39,134 nucleotides of DNA, taken from an uncultured Deferribacteres bacterium. GTDB taxonomy: Bacteria; Zhuqueibacterota; Zhuqueibacteria; Zhuqueibacterales; Geothermadaptataceae. The stretch's first letter is position 1, and every line of letters begins with the position of its first letter. Positions 1 to 38,855 of the stretch are shown here, piece after piece. The position numbers and the translations under genes are program-made. The DNA lies in NCBI GenBank assembly GCA_964014485.1, contig CAXHAT010000062.1:1-39134 (forward strand), read 5' to 3'. Under the pieces are notes generated by a model. The model was not told the origin of the DNA. It worked only from the letters and a program-made list of their open reading frames with translations, and did not search any database.

Positions 1-109
1 CCCCATCTGTTCATTCAGCCGTCATCATTTATGACTCGCTCACGATCCCCGCAACGAAGATTTGGAGGTGGGCCACCTCGCAATCCCCATCTGTTCATTC
101 AGCTGTCAG
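1..109 (-). CRISPR. Start of CRISPR array A, running off the left window edge; repeat about CTGACAGCTGAATGAACAGATGGGGATTGCGAG (33 nt)
   Basis: 1-24 repeats 85-108 with one mismatch. The full copy at 77-109 ends in GGGGATTGCGAG, as does array B. The 52-nt intervening segment holds a degenerate handle (39-52). Only about 1.7 repeats are visible. Confidence 0.7.
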
Positions 110-371
110 GGCGGGGATCGTAAACCTTTTCCCCACAACGACTTACGACCAGGTTTTCGAGCGGTCGGCCTGTCTTACTTACGGAACGCTCTTTTTTCAC
201 TCGCAATCCCGTCACACCCAGAACTTCATCGCGACCGCTCGCAATCCCCACGTATCGGTAACAGCCGTTTTTTCGGCAAACGGGTTGTTCTTCGGCGCTC
301 CACAGCGCCAACGCCCGCTTGCGACTTAGTTTTACCGGCTCCCCGCATACTTTGCAATCTATGTACGGCAT
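99..371 (-). CDS. Small putative Zn-binding protein (CxxC...CxxxxC); C-terminal half overlaps the CRISPR leader
   Basis: AGGAG RBS before ATG at 371; MPYIDCKVCG...PVCRKNGC. Confidence 0.4.
   Translation of the reverse strand: MPYIDCKVCGEPVKLSRKRALALWSAEEQPVCRKNGCYRYVGIASGRDEVLGVTGLRVKKERSVSKTGRPLENLVVSRCGEKVYDPRPDS
110..245 (-). promoter_or_regulatory. CRISPR leader-like sequence for array A
   Basis: Inverted repeat CGACCGCTCG (232-241) / CGAGCGGTCG (158-167), then an IHF-site-like CGTAAGTCGTTGTGGGGAAAAGGTTTACG (minus strand) next to the first repeat. This resembles type I-C/I-G-style leaders. Confidence 0.6.
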
Positions 372-436
372 GCTTTTCTCCTCTGTTGTGCTCGCTCCCC
401 AGCGGCCGAACCGGGTAGGTCTCGCTATCCCCACCT

Positions 437-697
437 TCATTCCACGATTCCTAATGCTTTCCTAATTTCACGCTGCGCATCCTTGTAACCCATGGCGTAC
501 ATCTCCGACGCCATCAGCGACACAGCTTCTTCCGGCGTGCGGACAGTCATGTCAATCACGACCCCCGACAGTTTGTGATAAATTTCGCACGGGCTTTCAT
601 CGTTCTCATTGTCCACAAAACCGAACTGTCCGATCAAGTCTAATACCTCCGCTTTCTTTTCAAGCAATTCGTCATATTCTGTTTTTATTTTTTTCAT
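437..697 (-). CDS. Hypothetical protein (86 aa) directly downstream of the dCas12f-like gene
   Basis: Starts 2 nt after the upstream stop; typical small phage ORF. Confidence 0.7.
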   Translation of the reverse strand: MKKIKTEYDELLEKKAEVLDLIGQFGFVDNENDESPCEIYHKLSGVVIDMTVRTPEEAVSLMASEMYAMGYKDAQREIRKALGIVE

Positions 698-699
698 TT

Positions 700-1923
700 T
701 TAACCTGCAATCTTTACTTTCGGCGGCGGCTCAATGCCCCAAACCTCGCGCCACTCGGATAGTTTGATGCCCACTTTAGAAAACACGATATGGTTGCACT
801 CAAGCTTCCATTTCAGATGACTCTCAAGCCGCGTCCAATCGAACGGTGCTCCCTTCGCTGACAGCCAACACGCATCACGGACGGGTGTGGTGGGCGAACG
901 ATATATCACCTTGCCGCAGTTGTTTTTGACGCACGATCTTATCACGTCCGCCACCATCATCTTCACAAATCGATCCTCCATGTCTTGCACTGCGCGGGAG
1001 TCGGGACGCAACGCGCGGTAAAACTGCTTTTTCCCCCTCCCCTTCGCCGCCGCGCCGTCTCGGTAGCGATACCGCGTCGCTTTGCGGCGAATCTCCAAAC
1101 GGCGGAAACCCTCCGCCAAGGGCAATCCGTCGCCCATCCACCAGCGCCATCGTTTGTCTTCCGCGCCGGGAAAAAAGAACGCAAACGGTCTGCGACCGTC
1201 CGGCGACGCCGGTACAATCTCCGCCACTCGCTCCGCATCCAGATTGTGGTCCTTCGTCGGGACGGGGTAGCTAAGCTGAAAAAACCACTTGCCTTTTTTG
1301 AAAACGAAAGAACTATCGCCCGCCTTATATTCCTTGCGGACTATCTTCTTTAAAATCTCTCTCTCGCCGTGCGACATCTGCCTCACTTCGAGCCGGCACA
1401 AGCCACGCATCTCTTTGCGTCCTGCCTGCTGAGAATAGATCGGGAAGCTCAGCACCGCTGAATCTTCGCCCATCCACAAATTACGCTGCGTCGCTTTTGC
1501 ATTACTGGCCAAACCGTCGTAGTAAATGCAAAAATCCTGACACGGCGCTGGCAGAAATATCGATCGGTGCGACGGTAACGAAAACTCGTTGGAAAGTATC
1601 GCCTTCCAGCGGTACTTTTCGCCGCGATGATTCCACGGCGTCTTGCCCCGCAGCCACTTCTCCACGCCGCGCTTGCATGCGCTGACGATCTTCGAGTTGA
1701 GCCGCGGGGCGGCGTCGCGTCCAGAGTTATAGATCGGTATTCCCCACGGTTTCTCCGCGAACTTGTCCGTGTCTTCGTCTTCGTGAAAACGTTGCCAGCG
1801 ACGCGCTACGGCGTTGCGGGCCACGTTGGCCATATCCGCCGCCTCTTGCAGGTCGGCGTGCAGGCGAGCGGTCGTTGTGTTGAGCGCAGCGCCGAGTTTA
1901 ATTTGTAGCGTACCTTGCGGCAT
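700..1923 (-). CDS. cas12f: Cas12f1/TnpB-family RNA-guided protein, predicted nuclease-dead and C-terminally truncated (407 aa)
   Basis: Colinear motif matches to AsCas12f1 as recalled: RLNSKIVS~RLNSGNLS; ILSNEFSLPSHR~ILRGDMSIPSYK; KKGKWFFQLSY~KNKWYLNISY; KGRGKK~GGHGRD; NCGKVIY~GCGTIQM; LESHLKWK~LQQKIIYK. RuvC-I D position is V237 (VAEIVPA) and RuvC-II E position is R342 (VIYRSP). No CxxC Zn finger or NAD/RuvC-III motif. Confidence 0.85.
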   Translation of the reverse strand: MPQGTLQIKLGAALNTTTARLHADLQEAADMANVARNAVARRWQRFHEDEDTDKFAEKPWGIPIYNSGRDAAPRLNSKIVSACKRGVEKWLRGKTPWNHRGEKYRWKAILSNEFSLPSHRSIFLPAPCQDFCIYYDGLASNAKATQRNLWMGEDSAVLSFPIYSQQAGRKEMRGLCRLEVRQMSHGEREILKKIVRKEYKAGDSSFVFKKGKWFFQLSYPVPTKDHNLDAERVAEIVPASPDGRRPFAFFFPGAEDKRWRWWMGDGLPLAEGFRRLEIRRKATRYRYRDGAAAKGRGKKQFYRALRPDSRAVQDMEDRFVKMMVADVIRSCVKNNCGKVIYRSPTTPVRDACWLSAKGAPFDWTRLESHLKWKLECNHIVFSKVGIKLSEWREVWGIEPPPKVKIAG

Positions 1924-1978
1924 ATTATCCCCCCCCGTGTTAAAGCAATGTTGCGGTCTTCTCGCCCTCGCATCCCCG

Positions 1979-2497
1979 TTAGGCCATCTGTCTCTCTACC
2001 AATTTTTCTAGTTCTGCTAGTCTTCCGCGAAGCTCCGCGTTCTCGATCTCCAGGTCGTTGATGCGCTGGATCAGCGTCTTTCGATCGGAGATGGCCGTTG
2101 TAGCTTCGTCGAGTTCCTTCTTTAGCTTCTCTGCCTCTTTCTTCCATGATGTGCGGTGTCCTTGGAGTGTTTCCTTGGACTCTTCCGCGCGGCTGTCTTC
2201 CCACTCCGCGTGCATCGCGGAAAGGTTGTAGTTCCGCTCGATCCACTGATTCTCGCTTGGGAAATGCCGATAAATATCCAGCAGCGTTCCGAGCGTCAGC
2301 AGGCCGGAGATAGCGGAGAAATACTCGCTCTCGATAGCGGCTTCGGCTGCGTCCAAATTTCCGCCGTGGACTTGAGCGATCCAATCGGTATCGCTCAGAA
2401 TCTCCGCCGCCAGCTTGACGCTGCGGTAGATGTTGCGTCGTAGATTGCGCGAAACTTCTTTGAGTTCTGCGATTTTTTGCGTTGTGGTTTTTGGCAC
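1979..2497 (-). CDS. Hypothetical protein with C-terminal coiled coil (172 aa)
   Basis: Heptad-rich C-terminus (LKKELDEA...LEIENAELRGRLAELEKL); tightly packed operon upstream of cas12f. Confidence 0.7.
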   Translation of the reverse strand: MPKTTTQKIAELKEVSRNLRRNIYRSVKLAAEILSDTDWIAQVHGGNLDAAEAAIESEYFSAISGLLTLGTLLDIYRHFPSENQWIERNYNLSAMHAEWEDSRAEESKETLQGHRTSWKKEAEKLKKELDEATTAISDRKTLIQRINDLEIENAELRGRLAELEKLVERQMA

Positions 2498-2499
2498 AA

Positions 2500-2877
2500 T
2501 TAAAACCTTTCTAATATGTTAGTCTGACAGTCATAGGGATTAAAACCGATAAACACGACTTTTTCGAAGCTGTACGTTTCTTTTAGCCACGCCGAGATCT
2601 TGTCCAGAATTTTCGGCGGCGTCCACGCGGATTGAAACTTGATCAGAATCGGCGTCCCGTCGCCGTCCAGGTCGAACGCTTTCACCCGATACGTACCCCA
2701 CTTTGTGCCCCAATTATGCATCGCCCAATCGTACCAATCATCTGTTGCCTTCACTGCTTCAGGCATAGGCAATAAGTCCCTACACGGATTCTTTTCTTCA
2801 TATTCCACATTAAATGCCTCCACATCAAACTCGTCGCCGGGCGAGCAGACAGCCATTGTGGTGTAGTGATTCGGCAT
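2500..2877 (-). CDS. DUF1281/YubB-like ferredoxin-fold protein (125 aa)
   Basis: MPNHY start after a GGAGG RBS; WYDWAMHNWGTKW and FQSAWTPP motifs. Confidence 0.75.
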   Translation of the reverse strand: MPNHYTTMAVCSPGDEFDVEAFNVEYEEKNPCRDLLPMPEAVKATDDWYDWAMHNWGTKWGTYRVKAFDLDGDGTPILIKFQSAWTPPKILDKISAWLKETYSFEKVVFIGFNPYDCQTNILERF

Positions 2878-2906
2878 ACGGTTTTGACTTCGCCTCCCCC
2901 GAAGAT

Positions 2907-2950
2907 AAAAAAACCGCGCCGCCGCGTGGGGGTAAACAACGACGGCGCGG
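2907..2950 (-). terminator. Rho-independent terminator ending the candidate tracrRNA
   Basis: GC-rich stem CCGCGCCG...CGGCGCGG followed by T7 on the minus strand. Confidence 0.8.
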
Positions 2951-3178
2951 CAATGGGGATCGACCGGGCCTTGCGCTCTGCGCCACGTCTCAAGGACGCC
3001 TGCATATCCGGTCTTCGTTTCGGTGGCCTTCTGCGAGAGTTGCCGGGCGCTTGCTACAGGGTCATGGATTCCGCAGGGGACTTTGGAATACGCACGATTG
3101 ATCCTGTCTTGCGACACCGGTACTTGCTCGCCACTCAATGGGCCTGCGAGCGGCCCAAACGCGACGTTTGCCGCGTCT
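2907..3178 (-). ncRNA. Candidate tracrRNA/scaffold for the Cas12f-like protein (~270 nt)
   Basis: Has its own promoter and terminator. Hairpin UGGGCC-GCUCGCA-GGCCCA (3139-3157) has a loop complementary to the repeat 3' end UGCGAG. GAUCCCCAU (2953-2961), just before the terminator, is complementary to repeat AUGGGGAUU. Confidence 0.7.
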
Positions 3179-3184
3179 AATCTA

Positions 3185-3212
3185 ATTGTATCAAGTGTGG
3201 CTTGTTGGGCAA
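3185..3212 (-). promoter_or_regulatory. Sigma-70-like promoter
   Basis: TTGCCC-N16-TACAAT with extended -10 TG, just after the helicase stop. Confidence 0.65.
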
Positions 3213-3227
3213 GTGTTTTTTTGAAGA

Positions 3228-4811
3228 TTATTTCTCGGGTTGCCATTCCTCTAAAATGTAAGAAATAATCTCCCGCTTCTTTTCGATCGCGCGATACAAC
3301 GAATGATCGACCGTGTTCTTCGCGACGAGCCGATAGAACACGCACGGCCTCTCCTGCCCTGGTCGCAGAATGCGAGCCAACATCTGATCGTATTTATCCA
3401 GGCGAAATCCGATGGAGTACAGCACACACAAACGGCTGCGGGTCAGGTCGATACCCTCCGCACCGCTGTCAATCTGCACGCCGCACACGTCCACTTCCGC
3501 CATGCGCCCCATATCGTCCAGGCCGTCCCTGCGCCTCCCGCTCACTTCGCCGTAGTGCAAGCCGAGTTTCCGCGCCACCATCTGCACGCTTTGCAGACAA
3601 TGCCGAAACCGACAAGCAACAACAACCGGCTCGTTGACATCCGTTAAAATGTCCGCCAGCACGGCTTCCTTGCCGCTCTCGAACTCATGGATTTTATCTG
3701 TGTCGTCCTTGATGTGCCCGCTCGTAATCTGCTGCAATCGCAACAGACGCACTAGCGCGTTCTCAGCAGTGATAACGCCGGCGGCAATCTCGGTAATTAG
3801 CTCTTCCTCAAGCTGATCGTAGAGCGTTCTCGCCTCCTTGCTCAGTTCGAACTTGCGAGTCTCGTGCATCGCTTTGGGAAGGTCGAGCACGTCGCCGGCC
3901 ATCACGCGAAATGAATATTGTTGGTAGATGCCGTTCAACTCTTCCTGATTAATCCATCGGTCCACCTTGCTCGGAAACATCTCGTTAAATACAGCATACT
4001 TACGAGAGAAGTCGCCGTAATTTGTGCCAAGGATGCCAGAATCGAGGAACCTAAATTGCCCAAACAAGTCCAGCGGGTTATTGCCCATCGGTGTGCCGGT
4101 GAGACACAGCCTACGCTTGGCCGTCAGTCCCAATCGATACGCCGCTTTCGACTGCTTACTTCCGTGCTTGCCGATGCGATGACTCTCATCGCAAACCATC
4201 AAGTCGCAGTCGCGGTTTTTCAGGCGATCAAACAACGGCTCGCGCCATGCCGACTCGTAATTCGCGACCACCGCGCATTGCGGGCCGTTCGCCTCCTCTA
4301 GAGTGGTTAGCTTGCGATCCATCGTGGATTGGTCAAGGCATACTACGTCGTAAGGCAAGGGCGAGTGTTTCTCGAACTCGCGCCGCCACACGCCGATCAC
4401 CGACTTCGGGCAGAGAATAAGCACTTGATCGGCCAGCCACGAATTGGCCAGCGCGATTGTGACGGCGCTTTTCATGGTGCCCATGTCCATCGCCAGCATG
4501 CCGGCATGCCGTTCCACCATCGAATTGAACGCGTCCACTTGATGCGGAAGCGGCGGCAGTTTCATAGGCACACGGCAGGCTTGAAAATCGCCGAAAAACT
4601 GCTTTCCTCGCAACGCGAGCAGATTAACTTCGCTGTTGACATCAAAACCTTCAACCATAATCCTTAGCGCCGTAATCGGCGTGGCCGTGCAGGTCCACTT
4701 ACAGCGGTCCTTGCGGCCTTGCCGCGCATCCGGCAGCGTGCGCAGAAATCCAGCGCGTTCGCCGGGTATGCGCGTCGTCAGAATTAACCGTCCGTCTTTT
4801 ATTTCGACCAT
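3228..4811 (-). CDS. SNF2-family (DEXH) helicase
   Basis: Q motif PHQ; Walker A-like MGTMKS; CDESH; LTGTP; GAEGIDL; QMLARILRPGQ. Confidence 0.92.
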   Translation of the reverse strand: MVEIKDGRLILTTRIPGERAGFLRTLPDARQGRKDRCKWTCTATPITALRIMVEGFDVNSEVNLLALRGKQFFGDFQACRVPMKLPPLPHQVDAFNSMVERHAGMLAMDMGTMKSAVTIALANSWLADQVLILCPKSVIGVWRREFEKHSPLPYDVVCLDQSTMDRKLTTLEEANGPQCAVVANYESAWREPLFDRLKNRDCDLMVCDESHRIGKHGSKQSKAAYRLGLTAKRRLCLTGTPMGNNPLDLFGQFRFLDSGILGTNYGDFSRKYAVFNEMFPSKVDRWINQEELNGIYQQYSFRVMAGDVLDLPKAMHETRKFELSKEARTLYDQLEEELITEIAAGVITAENALVRLLRLQQITSGHIKDDTDKIHEFESGKEAVLADILTDVNEPVVVACRFRHCLQSVQMVARKLGLHYGEVSGRRRDGLDDMGRMAEVDVCGVQIDSGAEGIDLTRSRLCVLYSIGFRLDKYDQMLARILRPGQERPCVFYRLVAKNTVDHSLYRAIEKKREIISYILEEWQPEK

Positions 4812-11074: not shown

Positions 11075-13255
11075 TCAACTAGTGATGATGTCGCGGAGGC
11101 GTGGAGCCTGCTTCGCCCACGATCGCCTTTCCGCCCATGCCCTCGCCTGCACGCTGGCCTCGCTGATGTCGCGTCTGTGCCAATGGCGCATTAATCCGGC
11201 TAGCGCCTCCGCATCACTCTCCGCGGCCTGAATCGTGCGCGCCAGCCGCTCGCTGCGATACACGCAGGGGATCTTGTCGAGGTGGTTGTATTCACTCATC
11301 GGAGGCGCGTCCGTGCAAATAAGCGGCATGCCGCACGCCTGAGCCTCGAGCGCCTGAAGGCCGATCCCCTCCCAACGGCTGGGAAAAAGCAACACGTCGC
11401 CGTGAGCGTACAGTTGCTCAGGACACGACGCCTCGCCCATAAAATTGACGTGTTGCGGCCATCGCACATTGCTAGCCCCATGACCACGATATTGCTGCTC
11501 GTATACGATTAGCGGTATTTCAGGACACATCTCTGCCGCGCGAGCTACAATGTCGCCGCCTTTGCGCCCCTTGCTGCCACGGTTGCCGTGTACAAATAAA
11601 TACGACCGGACACGATCGCGGCGGCGAAAAGAGAATCGCTCCGTATCCACCGGCCACGGAAAAAGATGGATGCGGTTGGCCGGAAAGTGCTGGTGCAAAA
11701 AACGATAGCAATACTCGTTGGGGGCAATCCACAAATCAACGGATTTAACCCACGACGCCCCTGGATCAAGCCACTCATGCATAGGCACACACGCCGTCTT
11801 CACGCCGCACTCTTTGGCGGCCTCAAAAAATCCCGATACCGGCATCAATTCGGCGAACACCACCACGCTCAGATTAGATAAAAACTCGCGCACTTCCTGC
11901 CCCGCATTGCCATCGCAAAAAATGCTCTGCGTGCATTCCAGGGAGTCGAGATGAGGCACTCGGTGCGCGGGAATCAACCACTTATCTGCCGGCAGATGAC
12001 GCACTAAATCACGGTTGAGATACCCCAATCCCTGCGCCGTATTGTAGCCCACAACGCCTATACCTGAATCTACTTTCTGTCGAGGCGTAGTAATCTCTAC
12101 GCGATTATTTTGCGGCCATTCTCCTTGAGTGCAATCAAAATCTTCGCCAACAAAAGTGGGAGCCATGCGGCTATGATTATGATCCAATGAGGCGGACAAT
12201 CCTGGATGCATTACGCTTGTCTCACCAATGTGTTGAGCGAGACTGGGTGAGTGGTAATAAACTTTATACCCCCTTTTATTCATCCATCCACCGATTGCAT
12301 TATCGAGGCAATGTCTACTCTTGCGGTCAATCAAGTCAGCGTCGGTGATTATCTCTTTTGCAACATGACGTGGAATAATCCACGCGCATGCTCCAACTAA
12401 TTGACGACCGCGATTCACCGGCTGAAATCCATACTCGTTCGATTCATATCCATGCGGTGTGTATAACGATAACAAACCAGCATCCCGCGGAAAATGCACA
12501 TTTTCTAGGTATGCGCGTACATATCTTGCAAAAACAACGTCATCCTGACACAACAAGATATGGCTTGACTGAGGGTTAGAAACATAAAGTTCGGTTAACG
12601 ATAAAAACCAATTCTGCCAACCGCCTGTTGTTCTTTGCCTGGTGGTTGTTACGGAATTTTCTGGAACGCTCGAATTTCCGTCCACGAAAATCACAAAATA
12701 ATTCCACCCTGCCAAATTCAAACTGCTTGTTGTACGAGTTAACGTCTCTTTGCGCCGTTGCGTGGTTGTTATGCCAACTGCATACACACGTTTTCTATCC
12801 TCACTTTTTTTTTTAATGTGGGGAATGGGGAACGCCATGGCGGAAATTAAATCGCCAGGATAAGAAGGAGTGTCTGGATCGTCCTCAGAAACCGAGCGAG
12901 CCAAAGATGGAGTGTAAAAATAAATAGAAAGACCATTTCTCTTGGCCCACCTGCCAAGGTTTTCATCGCCTGAATTCGCGAATTCTCTAAGAACGTCGGA
13001 GTTAAATAACAGGCAAAAATTGCAATTGAATCTTTCTCCGATATTGCAAGATGACAATTTACCCCACCTCGACTCAAAAGCGCGAGGTGTGAAAAAAGAG
13101 CAAGCCGCGGCGTCATCTGGGATCAAAAATTGCTCAGAAAAAGCAGAAATATCTTTGCAACATTTAACGCCGCGACGCCGCAAAAGGACTCTAGAATCTG
13201 GTCGAAAAAACCCCCCGCCTAATTCACCAATGTTGCTGAATTCAATGTCATACAT
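11075..13255 (-). CDS. Multidomain glycosyltransferase (GT-A/GT2-like plus GT-B/GT4-like)
   Basis: VIFVDG, LLCQDDVVF, GACAWII and PSLAQHIG (GT-A); RKGGD and PSRWEGIGLQALEAQACGMP (GT4 EX7E motif). Confidence 0.85.
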   Translation of the reverse strand: MYDIEFSNIGELGGGFFRPDSRVLLRRRGVKCCKDISAFSEQFLIPDDAAACSFFTPRAFESRWGKLSSCNIGERFNCNFCLLFNSDVLREFANSGDENLGRWAKRNGLSIYFYTPSLARSVSEDDPDTPSYPGDLISAMAFPIPHIKKKSEDRKRVYAVGITTTQRRKETLTRTTSSLNLAGWNYFVIFVDGNSSVPENSVTTTRQRTTGGWQNWFLSLTELYVSNPQSSHILLCQDDVVFARYVRAYLENVHFPRDAGLLSLYTPHGYESNEYGFQPVNRGRQLVGACAWIIPRHVAKEIITDADLIDRKSRHCLDNAIGGWMNKRGYKVYYHSPSLAQHIGETSVMHPGLSASLDHNHSRMAPTFVGEDFDCTQGEWPQNNRVEITTPRQKVDSGIGVVGYNTAQGLGYLNRDLVRHLPADKWLIPAHRVPHLDSLECTQSIFCDGNAGQEVREFLSNLSVVVFAELMPVSGFFEAAKECGVKTACVPMHEWLDPGASWVKSVDLWIAPNEYCYRFLHQHFPANRIHLFPWPVDTERFSFRRRDRVRSYLFVHGNRGSKGRKGGDIVARAAEMCPEIPLIVYEQQYRGHGASNVRWPQHVNFMGEASCPEQLYAHGDVLLFPSRWEGIGLQALEAQACGMPLICTDAPPMSEYNHLDKIPCVYRSERLARTIQAAESDAEALAGLMRHWHRRDISEASVQARAWAERRSWAKQAPRLRDIITS

Positions 13256-18600: not shown

Positions 18601-18771
18601 CTATTTGGTTTTTTCTTTGCTTGATTCTTCTTCCTTACGCATGTCCAGGTCAACATATCGGCAAGATCCTTTTTCAACGCCAAATCTCTCTAGCCTTTTC
18701 GGGCGCTGCTCAATATGTTCTTCGATTTCTTTTTTGAATTTATTAACATGCTCTGATTTTTCGTTATTCAT
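18601..18771 (-). CDS. Small charged protein downstream of the second ART (possible immunity or partner protein)
   Basis: Start overlaps the ART stop. Confidence 0.5.
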   Translation of the reverse strand: MNNEKSEHVNKFKKEIEEHIEQRPKRLERFGVEKGSCRYVDLDMRKEEESSKEKTK

Positions 18772-19768
18772 TTGTTTCAATTTCATCAAGTTGATATACT
18801 ACCATGTTTTTACCAAGCGTCTTACGAGTTTTTTTCCCAACTACACGGTAATGCGTTCCATGCCTCTGCATAAGCTCCGTCTCCGGCTTGAATTGGGAAT
18901 ATGGCGCAACATAATGACCTGTTTTCGCACGGACTTCAAACATTGTTCCCTTACCCCATCCCGCATAAGAAATTGCCACATGTGGAGTTGTTGTTGTTGA
19001 GCGCATTCCGTCAAATGTCACCGCACCGTCATTTTTCAACGCTTTTTCAACATTTTCTATAATTGATGGGTCAGTTGTTTCTCGCAAACCAAAGTATACC
19101 GTTTCCGGCTCTGGAAGCTTCTGGGAGGCAAGTTTTTGGAGTTCGTCAAGTTTCCATTTATTGTGCTCGTCTACGCAATCAAGTGTTTCAGGGCATTCTC
19201 TTAATCTCCGATTGAGACGAGAATAGCTTGGAGAAGTATAGAACTTTATGGCTTGTAATTCTTTTTCGTTCAGCGGTCCCTGAGTTTTCTGCCATTTCGA
19301 CAAAGAAAAATACTTAAAAACTGAAGAGACTAACGAACGAAAGGATTTGGGGAATTCTCGCGCCGACTCCTCTTGGGATTTTGAAAACGCGCCCTGCTTG
19401 TTTTTCTTCAAAGATAAAATTTTGTCAACCGTTCTATTTTCTTTTCCTTTCGCCTTTTTGTCCTCATCACCTCCTGACAACTTTGCTTTTTCTTTCGGGG
19501 TGGCGCCATCCATCACTTCTTTGGGAATAAACTCACCGCCCTTGAAATTTTTTCCACCAATACTTACGCCACCCTTAGGGGCATGCACCGCTCCCATACG
19601 TCTTACTCGCAGCGCCAACAGTGTAATTGAAATTTTGCGCCCAGGACTCGATGACACATCAATGCATGCAGGCTGGATGACGTGCAGACGTTGGAAACAT
19701 GCCGCCGATAGCCGCGAAATATGCAATTTTTTTGCATCTCTCATCGACAACCTTTTTATTTTTTTCAT
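18764..19768 (-). CDS. Second ADP-ribosyltransferase-fold protein (paralog), with the conserved Arg position replaced by Phe
   Basis: YTSPSYSRLNRRLRECPETLDC, TVYFGL, RSTT, PETELMQ; N-terminus homologous to 15542-17569. Confidence 0.8.
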   Translation of the reverse strand: MKKIKRLSMRDAKKLHISRLSAACFQRLHVIQPACIDVSSSPGRKISITLLALRVRRMGAVHAPKGGVSIGGKNFKGGEFIPKEVMDGATPKEKAKLSGGDEDKKAKGKENRTVDKILSLKKNKQGAFSKSQEESAREFPKSFRSLVSSVFKYFSLSKWQKTQGPLNEKELQAIKFYTSPSYSRLNRRLRECPETLDCVDEHNKWKLDELQKLASQKLPEPETVYFGLRETTDPSIIENVEKALKNDGAVTFDGMRSTTTTPHVAISYAGWGKGTMFEVRAKTGHYVAPYSQFKPETELMQRHGTHYRVVGKKTRKTLGKNMVVYQLDEIETNE

Positions 19769-34708: not shown

Positions 34709-35149
34709 CTCGCAATCCCCACGTGCGCGCGAATCGAAGCGCACCGCCAACACTCTCGCCAACACTCTCGCAATCCCCACGTGCACGCGAAGTGCACCTC
34801 CCTTGACATTATTTCGCTACGCGGACGCCTGGTCTCGCAATCCCCACGTGCGCGCGAAGCGCACCGTGCTCTCCGGTCGGCAATCAATATTGCCGGTGAT
34901 ACTCGCAATCCCCGCGTGCGCGCGAATCGCACCTTTTTGCTTCTTTTATCTCGCAATCCCCGCGTACGCGCGAAGCGCACCCTGGCTGAGCATGGGCGAC
35001 TACAAGAGGCTGTGGCGCTCGCAATCCCCGCGTGCGCGCGAAGCACGCCATTTATTTATGACCGTAATCTCGCAATCCCCACGTGCGCGCGAAACGCACC
35101 TTGAACAAACCTATCCAAAAGCATCGAAACCCGCACTCGCAATCCCCAC
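34709..35149 (-). CRISPR. CRISPR array B: 7 full repeats plus one 3'-half repeat; consensus GGTGCGCTTCGCGCGCACGTGGGGATTGCGAG (32 nt)
   Basis: Repeat starts (+) at 34709, 34767, 34834, 34902, 34950, 35018, 35069 and 35136. Spacers are 21, 35, 36, 16, 36, 19 and 35 nt. Repeats carry a GTGCGC/GCGCAC hairpin. Confidence 0.93.
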
Positions 35150-37326: not shown

Positions 37327-38855
37327 CAAAATTTAATTACTCCCCCCCAGGTTTGTTTTTTCTTCTTTTTGCAGCAATACGCTGCGTAACTGCTCACGTC
37401 GATTTGATCCGCAGGCTCCTCGTCCAGCCCCGTCCACGACACCAATTCCGCCTCGTAAGCCGCCAACCACTCGGCCTCAATCGGAAGGAAAATACGACCC
37501 TCCTCAAGCATATTGAGCAGACCCGAAGCAACAGCCCGCTCAAGTTTCGCGCCGCCGTTCGTTCCCGCCCCTTTCTGCGTCGGCAACACCGGTCCCACCA
37601 AGTGTACGTTCGATTTGTTCAATTCCTCTTTCAACGCCGGGCCGAAGTGTGCGTTCTCGATATAAATCGCCGCGGGGTTCCACACACCCGTATAATAGAT
37701 TATTCTATTTTTCAAGCTGTTCCAACTTACTCGGTATCTCCACATATACCTTAAAAATAACCGATGTGAAGTCGCGTCGTAATCCCAAATACCCATCGTC
37801 GACCAGGACGCCTTTTTTCCTTTTTTCTCCTCAGCTTTTTCCTTCGACGTCCCCGCCGTGTCGATGGTGGCAAGGCGAGTGCAAAGTCTTGCATCAATGG
37901 CGTTATATGCTTTGTCGTCACGGACCTCTCGTAAAATCTCTCCCTGCAAGCTGTATCGCCGAAACCACGCTTGGTTGATTATCGAGTCCTCGCGGATCGT
38001 CCAGTCGCCCTCGATCAGACGTTGGCGGGTCACCTTGGGCAAGTGCCATAGCTTGGCGACGTACTCTTGTTCATCGATGGCGGGATTGTCGCGGATAAGC
38101 GCCGGAATAAACGCGCGGCGAGCGTCCACCCAATACGCCCTTGGCGTCGGGTCGCCGATCGATGCAATCGATTCGTCGGTAATAAATCGGTTCTTCACAA
38201 ATTCATGGCCGATGTTTCCCGGATTACTCGCCGCGCGAAAACGCAAAGGTATATCGCTATCTTTAGTTCGTCGTAATCGAGAAAACAAAAACAAGTAAGG
38301 ATTATCTTCGCTTGGATTATCTTCGTCCGCCGGCAATCGAAACTCGGTTAGTTCGTCCCAGCCGATAAACTGATACTCCGCCGAAGCGTAACGAAAACGA
38401 TCGTTTGGACTGTCGATATAACCAAACTGAATCGTTGCTCCGGACGCGAAAGTAAACGTTTTCTGCTGCTCATTCCAGTTCACCCCGCGCGGCAAAAGCC
38501 AACTCTTTGCCCGGTCCATAATCGCACCGGACAAGCTGAGCCGTGCATAATCGCGACGCAAAATCAACGCTGAATAATCAGGGCAGTCAACATACTGTAG
38601 CGCCGCCATTAACAGCCATTCAGTTTTTCCGGGGCCGGCGCTCCCGCCATAAAGTAATTCTTCGCAATCGATCGAAAGCGCCAATGCTTGCTTGGGCCAA
38701 GGGACGTGTGGGCAGTATTTAAGTATCTGCTCCCACCCGACCATTGCCGCCATTGTTTGGTGCAGGCCGGCTATTTCGTCCGTCGTTGACTGCGGCGATT
38801 GCAGCCAAGAGCTGAGCAAACCGATCTCGCTGTTGCTCGGGGGTAAAATCGTCAT
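37326..38855 (-). CDS. terL: Terminase large subunit
   Basis: YGGSAGPGKT Walker A, IGWDELT Walker B, ASNPG, nuclease IDTA...DQID. Confidence 0.92.
   Translation of the reverse strand: MTILPPSNSEIGLLSSWLQSPQSTTDEIAGLHQTMAAMVGWEQILKYCPHVPWPKQALALSIDCEELLYGGSAGPGKTEWLLMAALQYVDCPDYSALILRRDYARLSLSGAIMDRAKSWLLPRGVNWNEQQKTFTFASGATIQFGYIDSPNDRFRYASAEYQFIGWDELTEFRLPADEDNPSEDNPYLFLFSRLRRTKDSDIPLRFRAASNPGNIGHEFVKNRFITDESIASIGDPTPRAYWVDARRAFIPALIRDNPAIDEQEYVAKLWHLPKVTRQRLIEGDWTIREDSIINQAWFRRYSLQGEILREVRDDKAYNAIDARLCTRLATIDTAGTSKEKAEEKKGKKASWSTMGIWDYDATSHRLFLRYMWRYRVSWNSLKNRIIYYTGVWNPAAIYIENAHFGPALKEELNKSNVHLVGPVLPTQKGAGTNGGAKLERAVASGLLNMLEEGRIFLPIEAEWLAAYEAELVSWTGLDEEPADQIDVSSYAAYCCKKKKKQTWGGVIKF

Follow-up and report, generated by a model that had tools for sequence, protein, structure and literature searches.

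In Cas12f1 guides, as described in the available text of PMC11246509, the trans-activating CRISPR RNA, or tracrRNA, forms a long repeat:anti-repeat duplex in its 3' part and a short pseudoknot duplex of 5-7 base pairs (bp) with the repeat bases beside the guide. The dCas12f-sigmaE systems consist of nuclease-dead, C-terminally truncated Cas12f proteins that act in RNA-guided transcription and are linked to rpoE and helix-turn-helix genes in Bacteroidota; they use single guide RNAs, the accessible part of the article reporting that no tracrRNA-like species were found, and the same part mentions in passing a separate putative dCas12f cluster located beside CRISPR arrays, with putative guide RNAs recognised by covariance (Hoffmann et al., Nature 2026, PMC13472631). 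TldR proteins, according to the sections available, are TnpB-derived nuclease-dead repressors whose single omega-RNA-like guide lies at the 3' end of the gene (bioRxiv 10.1101/2023.11.30.569447). Here we describe a locus within the window, which is the entire 39,134-nucleotide (nt) contig CAXHAT010000062.1 (C62) of an 8.4-Mb, 465-contig genome assigned to an uncultured Deferribacteres bacterium. Judged from its sequence and that of four related loci, the minus-strand stretch 2907-3178, upstream of a gene for a Cas12f-fold effector, is very probably the tracrRNA-type scaffold of a phage-borne CRISPR-like system.

Parts of the predicted RNA

A first-pass annotation of this DNA had proposed a tracrRNA candidate with an anti-repeat split into two segments, appealing to the two-segment pairing (pseudoknot plus duplex) of Cas12f tracrRNAs, which the available text of PMC11246509 does contain. 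The elements that it named are found: a promoter-like site TTGCCC-N16-TACAAT at 3212-3185, a match that occurs at chance frequency; a region of ~270 nt closed by a clear and conserved intrinsic terminator ~1 kb upstream of the effector gene (984 nt from the end of the predicted RNA to the effector start at 1923); a hairpin at 3139-3157 whose loop GCUCGCA is complementary to the repeat bases UGCGAG; and, just before the terminator, the segment GAUCCCCAU (2953-2961), complementary to the repeat. The predicted RNA is separate from the CRISPR-like arrays, which lie 2.5 kb and ~31.5 kb away, and comprises the following parts, listed with its promoter-like site.

2907..3178, minus strand: predicted tracrRNA of ~272 nt, its 5' end placed by the -10 box and its 3' end by the terminator U-tract
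3185..3212, minus strand: promoter-like site TTGCCC-N16-(TG)TACAAT, with 9/12 consensus matches and TG before the -10
3158..3177, minus strand: 5' hairpin P0, present in folds of the window and absent from the comparison loci L009, L010, L011 and L024 (see below)
3139..3157, minus strand: hairpin P1, UGGGCC-GCUCGCA-GGCCCA, whose 7-nt loop (3145-3151) is the putative short anti-repeat to UGCGAG
3127..3136, minus strand: conserved core GAGUGGCGAG, 5' strand of the long-range helix P2, with GGCGAG invariant in 5/5 loci
3027..3041, minus strand: conserved core AACUCUCGCAGAAGG, 3' strand of P2, including a second CUCGCA (3032-3037)
2962..3013, minus strand: helix P5, GACCGG (3013-3008) with CCGGUC (2967-2962), enclosing a variable insert
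2953..2961, minus strand: putative 3' anti-repeat GAUCCCCAU, complementary to (A/G)UGGGGAU, which immediately precedes the terminal repeat hexamer
2907..2951, minus strand: intrinsic terminator, a 38-nt hairpin (2951-2914) followed by U7 (2913-2907)

The consensus scan, which is restricted to loops of 3-8 nt, for that reason did not report the hairpin at 2951-2914. Two additions are specific to the window RNA, namely P0 (3177-3158) and a lengthened insert in P5. Rfam had no family matching the window at gathering thresholds and, for 2800-3300, none up to an expectation value (E) of <= 1.

Covariation of both anti-repeats with the repeats

The window was compared with four independent loci, derived from one metagenome contig and three viral contig families: L009, a 3.1-kb metagenome contig whose effector is 37% identical to that of the window; L010 and L011, viral contigs of 61 kb and 9 kb, respectively; and L024, which represents three near-identical viral contigs of 37.7 kb and was found via a pattern of the RNA core. 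An nhmmer profile of the RNA matched 8/130 loci, namely these four and their duplicates. At least 119 stretches agreed with a loose RNA pattern, the RNA profile fitting none of these but the known loci and L024 plus its duplicates; a stricter pattern returned 14 stretches, five of them from the three known viral contig families and the other nine lacking P1 and repeats, so that these nine were judged to be chance matches. In all four loci the parts follow the same order (RNA with terminator, gene for a coiled-coil protein, effector, zinc-ribbon open reading frame (ORF), CRISPR array), with further units upstream of the effector in L009, L010 and L011. Two blocks of the RNA, GAG(U/A)GGCGAG and AACUCUCGC(A/U)GAA, are invariant across the five loci, and the L010 RNA is preceded by TGGTATAAT, an extended -10 box, 12 nt before its hairpin.

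Repeats vary among the five loci, which permits a direct test of pairing. Their 3' ends (with a hyphen where the two parts of the handle meet), the P1 loops and the tails between P5 and the terminator read as follows.

Window: repeat (A/G)UGGGGAU-UGCGAG; P1 loop GCUCGCA; tail AUCCCCAU
L009: repeat AAGUCGAAG-UGAGAG; P1 loop UCUCUCA; tail CUUCGAC
L010: repeat GAAGUGUGU-UGCGAG; P1 loop CCUCGCA; tail ACACACUUC
L011: repeat GAGAGCAUGU-UGCAAG; P1 loop ACUUGCA; tail ACAUGCUCUC
L024: repeat ACAGGAAUGA-UGCGAG; P1 loop ACUCGCA; tail UCAUUCCUGU

Each P1 loop forms 6/6 Watson-Crick pairs with the terminal repeat hexamer of its own locus (5/5 loci), the differences in L009 (UGAGAG/CUCUCA) and L011 (UGCAAG/CUUGCA) being compensated, and with non-cognate hexamers the loops of these two loci form 2-3 Watson-Crick pairs only. 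P1 itself consists of a 5-bp stem and a 7-nt loop in all five loci, and its stem covaries. The tail likewise follows the repeat of its own locus: that of the window makes 8 Watson-Crick pairs with the repeat of array A and 7 with that of array B (both described below), and those of the other four loci make 7, 9, 10 and 10 contiguous Watson-Crick pairs with their own repeat upstream of the hexamer, compared to 2-5 in the 24 non-cognate tail/repeat combinations, the Watson-Crick run alone being the discriminating measure for tails. That five tails of unrelated sequence each match the repeat of their own locus strongly supports tail-repeat pairing. Covariation, which the first-pass annotation had suggested as a check, is observed in both anti-repeats and in the fold, and across the five independent loci it supports the claim that the split anti-repeat reads exactly the handle common to all repeat types.

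Consensus fold and strand

RNAalifold, applied to the five sequences, returned six helices (P1, P2, two inner stems, P5 and the terminator); P2 is a long-range helix of GGCGAG..AGU with ACUCUCGC, in which the GAGUGGCGAG strand pairs with CUCGC (3037-3033), and P5 (GACCGG/CCGGUC) directly abuts the tail. The consensus comprises 46 pairs, 20 of which are changed on both sides, and 90.5% of its 220 cells are paired; 0/500 column shuffles reached any of five measures, and a control in which the partners were slid by 1-3 columns gave 35-47% paired. All cells of the 6 pairs of P5 are paired (100%), one position reading GC, AU, UA and CG, and the terminator hairpin stands at the same position in all five loci, with both-side changes in 8/12 pairs. 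The strand of the RNA is fixed by G-U pairs within the helices together with the U-tract terminators that follow it in all five loci, and the minus-strand terminator of array B agrees with this assignment.

The second CUCGCA (3032-3037), put forward earlier as a further complement of the repeat, lies where it had been reported and is not an anti-repeat: it keeps its sequence in L009 and L011, where the repeats have UGAGAG and UGCAAG at their ends. Since it is constant where the repeats differ and pairs with GCGAG (3131-3127) inside the RNA, it is a structural part of an invariant internal helix.

Arrays and the shared handle

The 12-mer CTCGCAATCCCC occurs in 11 copies in the window, all on the plus strand, in clusters at 77-249 and 34709-35147 that correspond to two arrays on the minus strand.

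1-432, minus strand: array A, two repeats UGACRGCUGAAUGAACAGAUGGGGAUUGCGAG, the second truncated by the contig end
432-421, 249-238, 211-200 and 50-39, minus strand: handle-only or degenerate units of array A
35147-34681, minus strand: array B, one handle-only unit (35147-35136) and then seven 33-nt repeats
34680-34659, minus strand: intrinsic terminator closing array B, an 8-bp stem and then a T-rich tail

The 5' part of array B repeats differs from that of array A and forms a hairpin, their 3' end is GUGGGGAUUGCGAG or GCGGGGAUUGCGAG, and the two repeat types have only their last 12-14 bases in common. The hairpin of array B varies between copies with compensation (34709-35101), for example GUGCGC/GCGCAC versus GUGCAC/GUGCAC at 34781, which suggests an RNA hairpin between guides. 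Spacers in this array measure 15-35 nt, an irregularity unlike arrays built by Cas1-Cas2.

Handles are also found outside regular arrays. A near-handle, GGGGAUAGCGAG, stands at 421-432 on the minus strand, ~50 nt upstream of the start of the zinc-ribbon ORF, and a repeat unit in L009 (1211-1253) ends 13 nt before the effector start codon; in both cases the gene leader may double as a guide. L010 contains 52 copies of its own 15-nt handle (<=1 mismatch) on both strands, 41 in arrays and 11 solitary, including those at 4351(-), 13349(-), 13907(-), 14881(-), 15024(+) and 17042(-). A TATAAT-like hexamer lies 4-20 nt upstream of 6/11 solitary handles, compared to 1.7% of background windows, and through such promoter-plus-handle units ordinary transcripts may start with a guide tag.

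No array with the window repeats was found elsewhere in the host genome; single copies of the 12-mer on contigs C4, C365 and C424 were set aside, ~1 being expected by chance in 16.8 Mb. Searched against the 8.4-Mb genome, the 13 window spacers and unit tails matched themselves and otherwise gave 14-20-nt matches at E >= 0.035. Among these, the first 15 nt after the handle 249-238 (window 212-237, minus strand) are identical to C122:9623-9637 of the same genome (E 0.087), a match that is not significant, with ~0.2 such anchored matches expected over 13 guides, and that marks a possible host target. Guides of L009, L010, L011 and L024 matched the DNA of the related loci in duplicated spacers only, and array B had no DNA match among GenBank phages.

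The effector and its neighbours

The minus strand carries nearly all genes of the window, and those around the RNA are arranged as follows.

3228-4811, minus strand: SNF2-family helicase gene (Pfam SNF2-rel_dom, E 5e-31), its stop at 3228 directly upstream of the RNA region
2500-2877, minus strand: small gene 3' of the RNA region (PHROG 20518)
1979-2497, minus strand: conserved neighbour between tracrRNA and effector, a coiled-coil protein of 172 amino acids (aa)
700-1923, minus strand: 407-aa Cas12f-fold effector, recognised by AlphaFold2 model, Foldseek and family profile
within 99-371, minus strand: small zinc-ribbon-like protein (CxxC...C..GC), conserved neighbour downstream of the effector

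The AlphaFold model of the effector (predicted local distance difference test 94.1; predicted template modelling (TM) score 0.87) is best matched in Foldseek by AsCas12f complexes (E 4e-19, TM 0.61-0.64, ~408 columns), followed by SpCas12f1, OsCas12f and published dCas12f, with TnpB structures far lower (5e-6). Compared with the PDB, the family profile scores SpCas12f1 at 9e-17, AsCas12f at 1e-14 and dCas12f (9n9c) at 1.4e-12.

The column of the RuvC-I aspartate (AsCas12f GIDLG) is hydrophobic and variable, with Val237 in the effector and T, V, L, M, R or E among 60 relatives, and the second catalytic position corresponds to R342/S343, column 343 being Glu in 47/60 relatives. The effector ends 63 residues later; in the 60 aligned relatives, the tails after RuvC-II are 47-116 aa long and contain 0-2 Cys in 59 cases and 4 Cys in one. 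Because these tails are short and Cys-poor, neither a zinc finger nor a third RuvC motif (RuvC-III) can be recognised, and no conserved RuvC-I Asp is found in the alignment of the effector with the 60 relatives either. The gene had been called cas12f, and as a label for an active nuclease this name does not survive the alignment: by sequence and model, the effector is probably a nuclease-dead Cas12f relative that binds DNA without cutting it.

Close relatives of the effector are scarce, with two obtained by word-indexed search. A profile search reached 605 representative clusters with a cut-off of E <= 1e-3 and 148 with E <= 1e-30; almost all of them are 370-550 aa long. The effector alone had no match among viral contigs, alignments of 3 and of 10 effector sequences had none among genome contigs, and GenBank phages gave only a TnpB-like 'transposase' (E 1e-3). 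Within 167 genomes of the host phylum the effector occurs only in the present one (G000) and is absent from the other 166, a distribution that fits a gene travelling with phages.

Homologues of the coiled-coil protein were detected by BLASTP in L009, L010, L011 and L024 (E 2e-31 to 3e-23); it has no Pfam family, and the ESM Atlas provided only a DUF3102 lead with a score <0.9 and no named function. An 86-aa gene follows the effector and precedes the zinc-ribbon-like ORF, beyond which repeat units continue to the contig end. The zinc-ribbon-like protein, which also has no Pfam family, is matched by BLASTP in L010, L011 and L024 (E 4e-12 to 1e-8), and its counterpart in L009 was recognised by eye (ORF 2536-2880). 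Both conserved neighbours may be partners of the effector.

Weighing the evidence

A number of observations weigh against the identification of a tracrRNA. Within the window, promoter-like sites are no more frequent than chance (4 in 5.2 kb versus 2.7 +/- 1.5 expected), and the other loci do not share the promoter sequence. The region does not fold exceptionally well (minimum free energy z-score -1.29, 23/200 shuffles folding equally well), nor is it among the 46 best places listed by a contiguous-duplex scan with the 15-nt handle. It holds five separate handle complements of >=6 nt, as many or more being found in 27/3,758 sliding windows, and the count is equalled at no fewer than five other places of the window. 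No RNA sequencing runs were listed that contain window 600-3400. As to the comparison, only five loci were available and three of these have the identical hexamer UGCGAG, so that loop covariation amounts to two independent substitutions; the duplexes of the anti-repeats with the repeat are short, at 6 + 8 bp; with G-U pairs allowed, some non-cognate tail runs become long, up to 10 for the L024 tail with window array A; the pairs of the consensus fold were counted on the same five sequences that yielded it; and P2, being invariant, is neither supported nor refuted by covariation. The observation becomes significant solely through comparison with the related loci.

It is this comparison that bears most directly on the idea that the stretch is the 3' untranslated region and terminator of the SNF2 helicase gene, or another cis element, with handle matches due to chance or left over from decayed repeats. 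The stretch does lie directly downstream of the helicase stop at 3228, its promoter is merely a consensus match and its complementarity within the window does not exceed chance. In the other loci, however, the homologous RNA stays beside the coiled-coil gene and the effector, an extended -10 box of its own precedes it in L010, and both anti-repeats change with the repeats in every locus, which neither chance nor decay explains, making this a very unlikely origin. Exceedingly improbable, in turn, is translation of the region as the N-terminal part of a 281-aa ORF (2500-3345). Although one frame is open across the region in the window, it traverses the terminator hairpin and U7; the first 156 aa have no Pfam or PHROG family, the PHROG match being confined to the last 125 aa; the homologous regions in L009, L010 and L024 (3/4 other loci) have stops in all three frames, with a different gene following the RNA there; and the substitutions preserve RNA pairs. 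The N-terminal extension, which the first-pass annotation had regarded as spurious, is on these sequence grounds just that, and the true gene start is most likely at 2877 or 2856.

A further alternative accepts the conserved RNA but makes it a regulator or decoy, which would sequester the handle or direct RNase processing or decay of array transcripts, the effector binding crRNAs (CRISPR RNAs) on its own. Complementarity and covariation indeed reveal that the handle is paired and not what the pairing does; array B repeats have a hairpin of their own, and published dCas12f-sigmaE systems function without a tracrRNA, as stated in the available text of PMC13472631. On the other hand, the layout is that of a Cas12f1 dual guide, with a long anti-repeat at the 3' end and a short one pairing beside the guide; the conserved, covarying scaffold of ~190 nt between the anti-repeats far exceeds the needs of a decoy; the handle-only units have no scaffold of their own; and the effector is nearest to tracrRNA-dependent Cas12f1 proteins. 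We therefore regard a regulator or decoy as unlikely and retain a tracrRNA-type scaffold as the explanation of the stretch.

A model for guide docking

As a tracrRNA-type scaffold, the RNA would be transcribed from ~3178 to 2907, presumably from the proposed promoter, and fold into P1, P2, P5 and the inner stems. Cas12f1 effectors act as dimers, and by analogy the effector would bind this RNA probably as a dimer. The two anti-repeats, ~185 nt apart in the RNA, are the P1 loop and GAUCCCCAU between P5 and the terminator. The counterpart of the short Cas12f1 pseudoknot duplex would be formed by the P1 loop and the terminal repeat hexamer UGCGAG, adjacent to the guide; that of the long repeat:anti-repeat duplex would be formed by GAUCCCCAU, predicted to be single-stranded, and the repeat bases (A/G)UGGGGAU, which would stack on P5. 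Such double docking would place the guide where Cas12f1 guides lie, with the two anti-repeats jointly reading a contiguous 14-nt handle that is the sole part common to both repeat types and the handle-only units. If the handle is sufficient for docking, any transcript bearing it would therefore be loadable as a guide; and as the residues for cleavage are missing, the outcome would be DNA binding, most plausibly for transcription control of phage, rival or host genes.

A more tentative extension, which we consider possible but doubtful, is that a 5' tag lets the complex of dead Cas12f and tracrRNA capture phage mRNAs as they are made and use their leaders as guides to bind matching DNA. Since the tracrRNA would need only a 14-nt tag, the phage could make guides from ordinary transcripts, and the handle-only unit 432-421 before the zinc-ribbon gene and the L009 unit directly before the effector start codon are placed as such tags would be. 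If true, this would constitute a self-programming circuit, run by the phage, for genome-wide control of transcription rather than an immune system.

The predicted RNA would define guide-RNA components for a large uncharacterised family of miniature, apparently non-cutting phage Cas12f-like proteins; without a tracrRNA, such phage dead-Cas12f systems could not be reconstituted. A docking tag of 14 nt, split 8 + 6, would be a very small programmable handle, by which one scaffold serves unrelated repeats, and an effector of ~400 aa able to tag any RNA via this handle could be useful for tool building.

Phage context

The window is phage DNA, as indicated by a large terminase gene (37329-38855), a Mu-type portal, Mu F-like and Gp36-like proteins, and neck and adaptor proteins. 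Among 38 scanned ORFs of this incomplete contig there was no Pfam match to cas1, cas2 or cas4, and no sigma-factor domain. The segment 600-3400 is contained in three DNA runs of one marine-metagenome study.

Other features of the contig stand apart from the RNA. The ORF at 18767-19768 (minus strand), which adjoins the gene for the Mu F-like head protein, has an exoenzyme-type ADP-ribosyltransferase domain (PF03496, E 2e-9) and may encode a virion-associated modifying enzyme. A 726-aa protein (11078-13255, minus strand) contains a group-1 glycosyltransferase domain and, just below the cut-off, also matches 'GT4 in conflict systems' more weakly (PF20706, E 8e-6). A region without long ORFs carries long direct repeats of 44-73 nt that are 85-98% identical (8468-8590/10630-10760 and 8891-8987/9459-9554); ARAGORN found no transfer RNA (tRNA) there, and repeat family D3 nevertheless resembles a tRNA arm.

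Comparison with known systems

TldR proteins resemble the effector in being miniature, RuvC-dead, RNA-guided DNA binders that act in gene regulation and are partly phage-encoded, as far as the available sections of bioRxiv 10.1101/2023.11.30.569447 describe them; unlike these, the system of the window has arrays and a predicted tracrRNA, and its effector fits Cas12f over TnpB structures (E 4e-19 versus 5e-6). With dCas12f-sigmaE it shares an effector that is, by alignment, nuclease-dead and C-terminally short and that presumably binds DNA without cutting. In contrast to those systems, as presented in the accessible part of PMC13472631, it has a separate predicted tracrRNA, arrays, and coiled-coil and zinc-ribbon neighbours, with no sigma-factor domain in the scanned ORFs, and its family profile scores PDB 9n9c (1.4e-12) below SpCas12f1 (9e-17). 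As the one dead Cas12f system characterised so far uses single guides, a dual-guide dead Cas12f would bear on the proposed route from omega-RNA through crRNA plus tracrRNA to a single guide (PMC13472631, available text). Our literature search turned up no account of a dead Cas12f that is carried by a phage and uses a tracrRNA.

The closest likeness is to the type V-F1 Cas12f1 systems (AsCas12f, SpCas12f1, Un1Cas12f1), with which the locus shares a predicted RNA encoded in trans near the effector, a predicted two-duplex design and the Cas12f fold. The short duplex, of 6 bp, is within the V-F1 range; the differences are that the second duplex is directly adjacent and only 7-10 bp long, that the short anti-repeat is presented in the loop of a 5-bp hairpin, and that a handle of only 14-16 nt could serve repeats with unrelated 5' parts as well as handle-only units. 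Moreover, RuvC-I Asp, zinc finger and RuvC-III are all missing from the effector, the system is carried by a phage with no cas1, cas2 or cas4 in the 38 scanned ORFs, and the RNA has no Rfam match. In summary, the predicted phage RNA is a new version of the known Cas12f1 tracrRNA design, set in an uncharacterised phage system.

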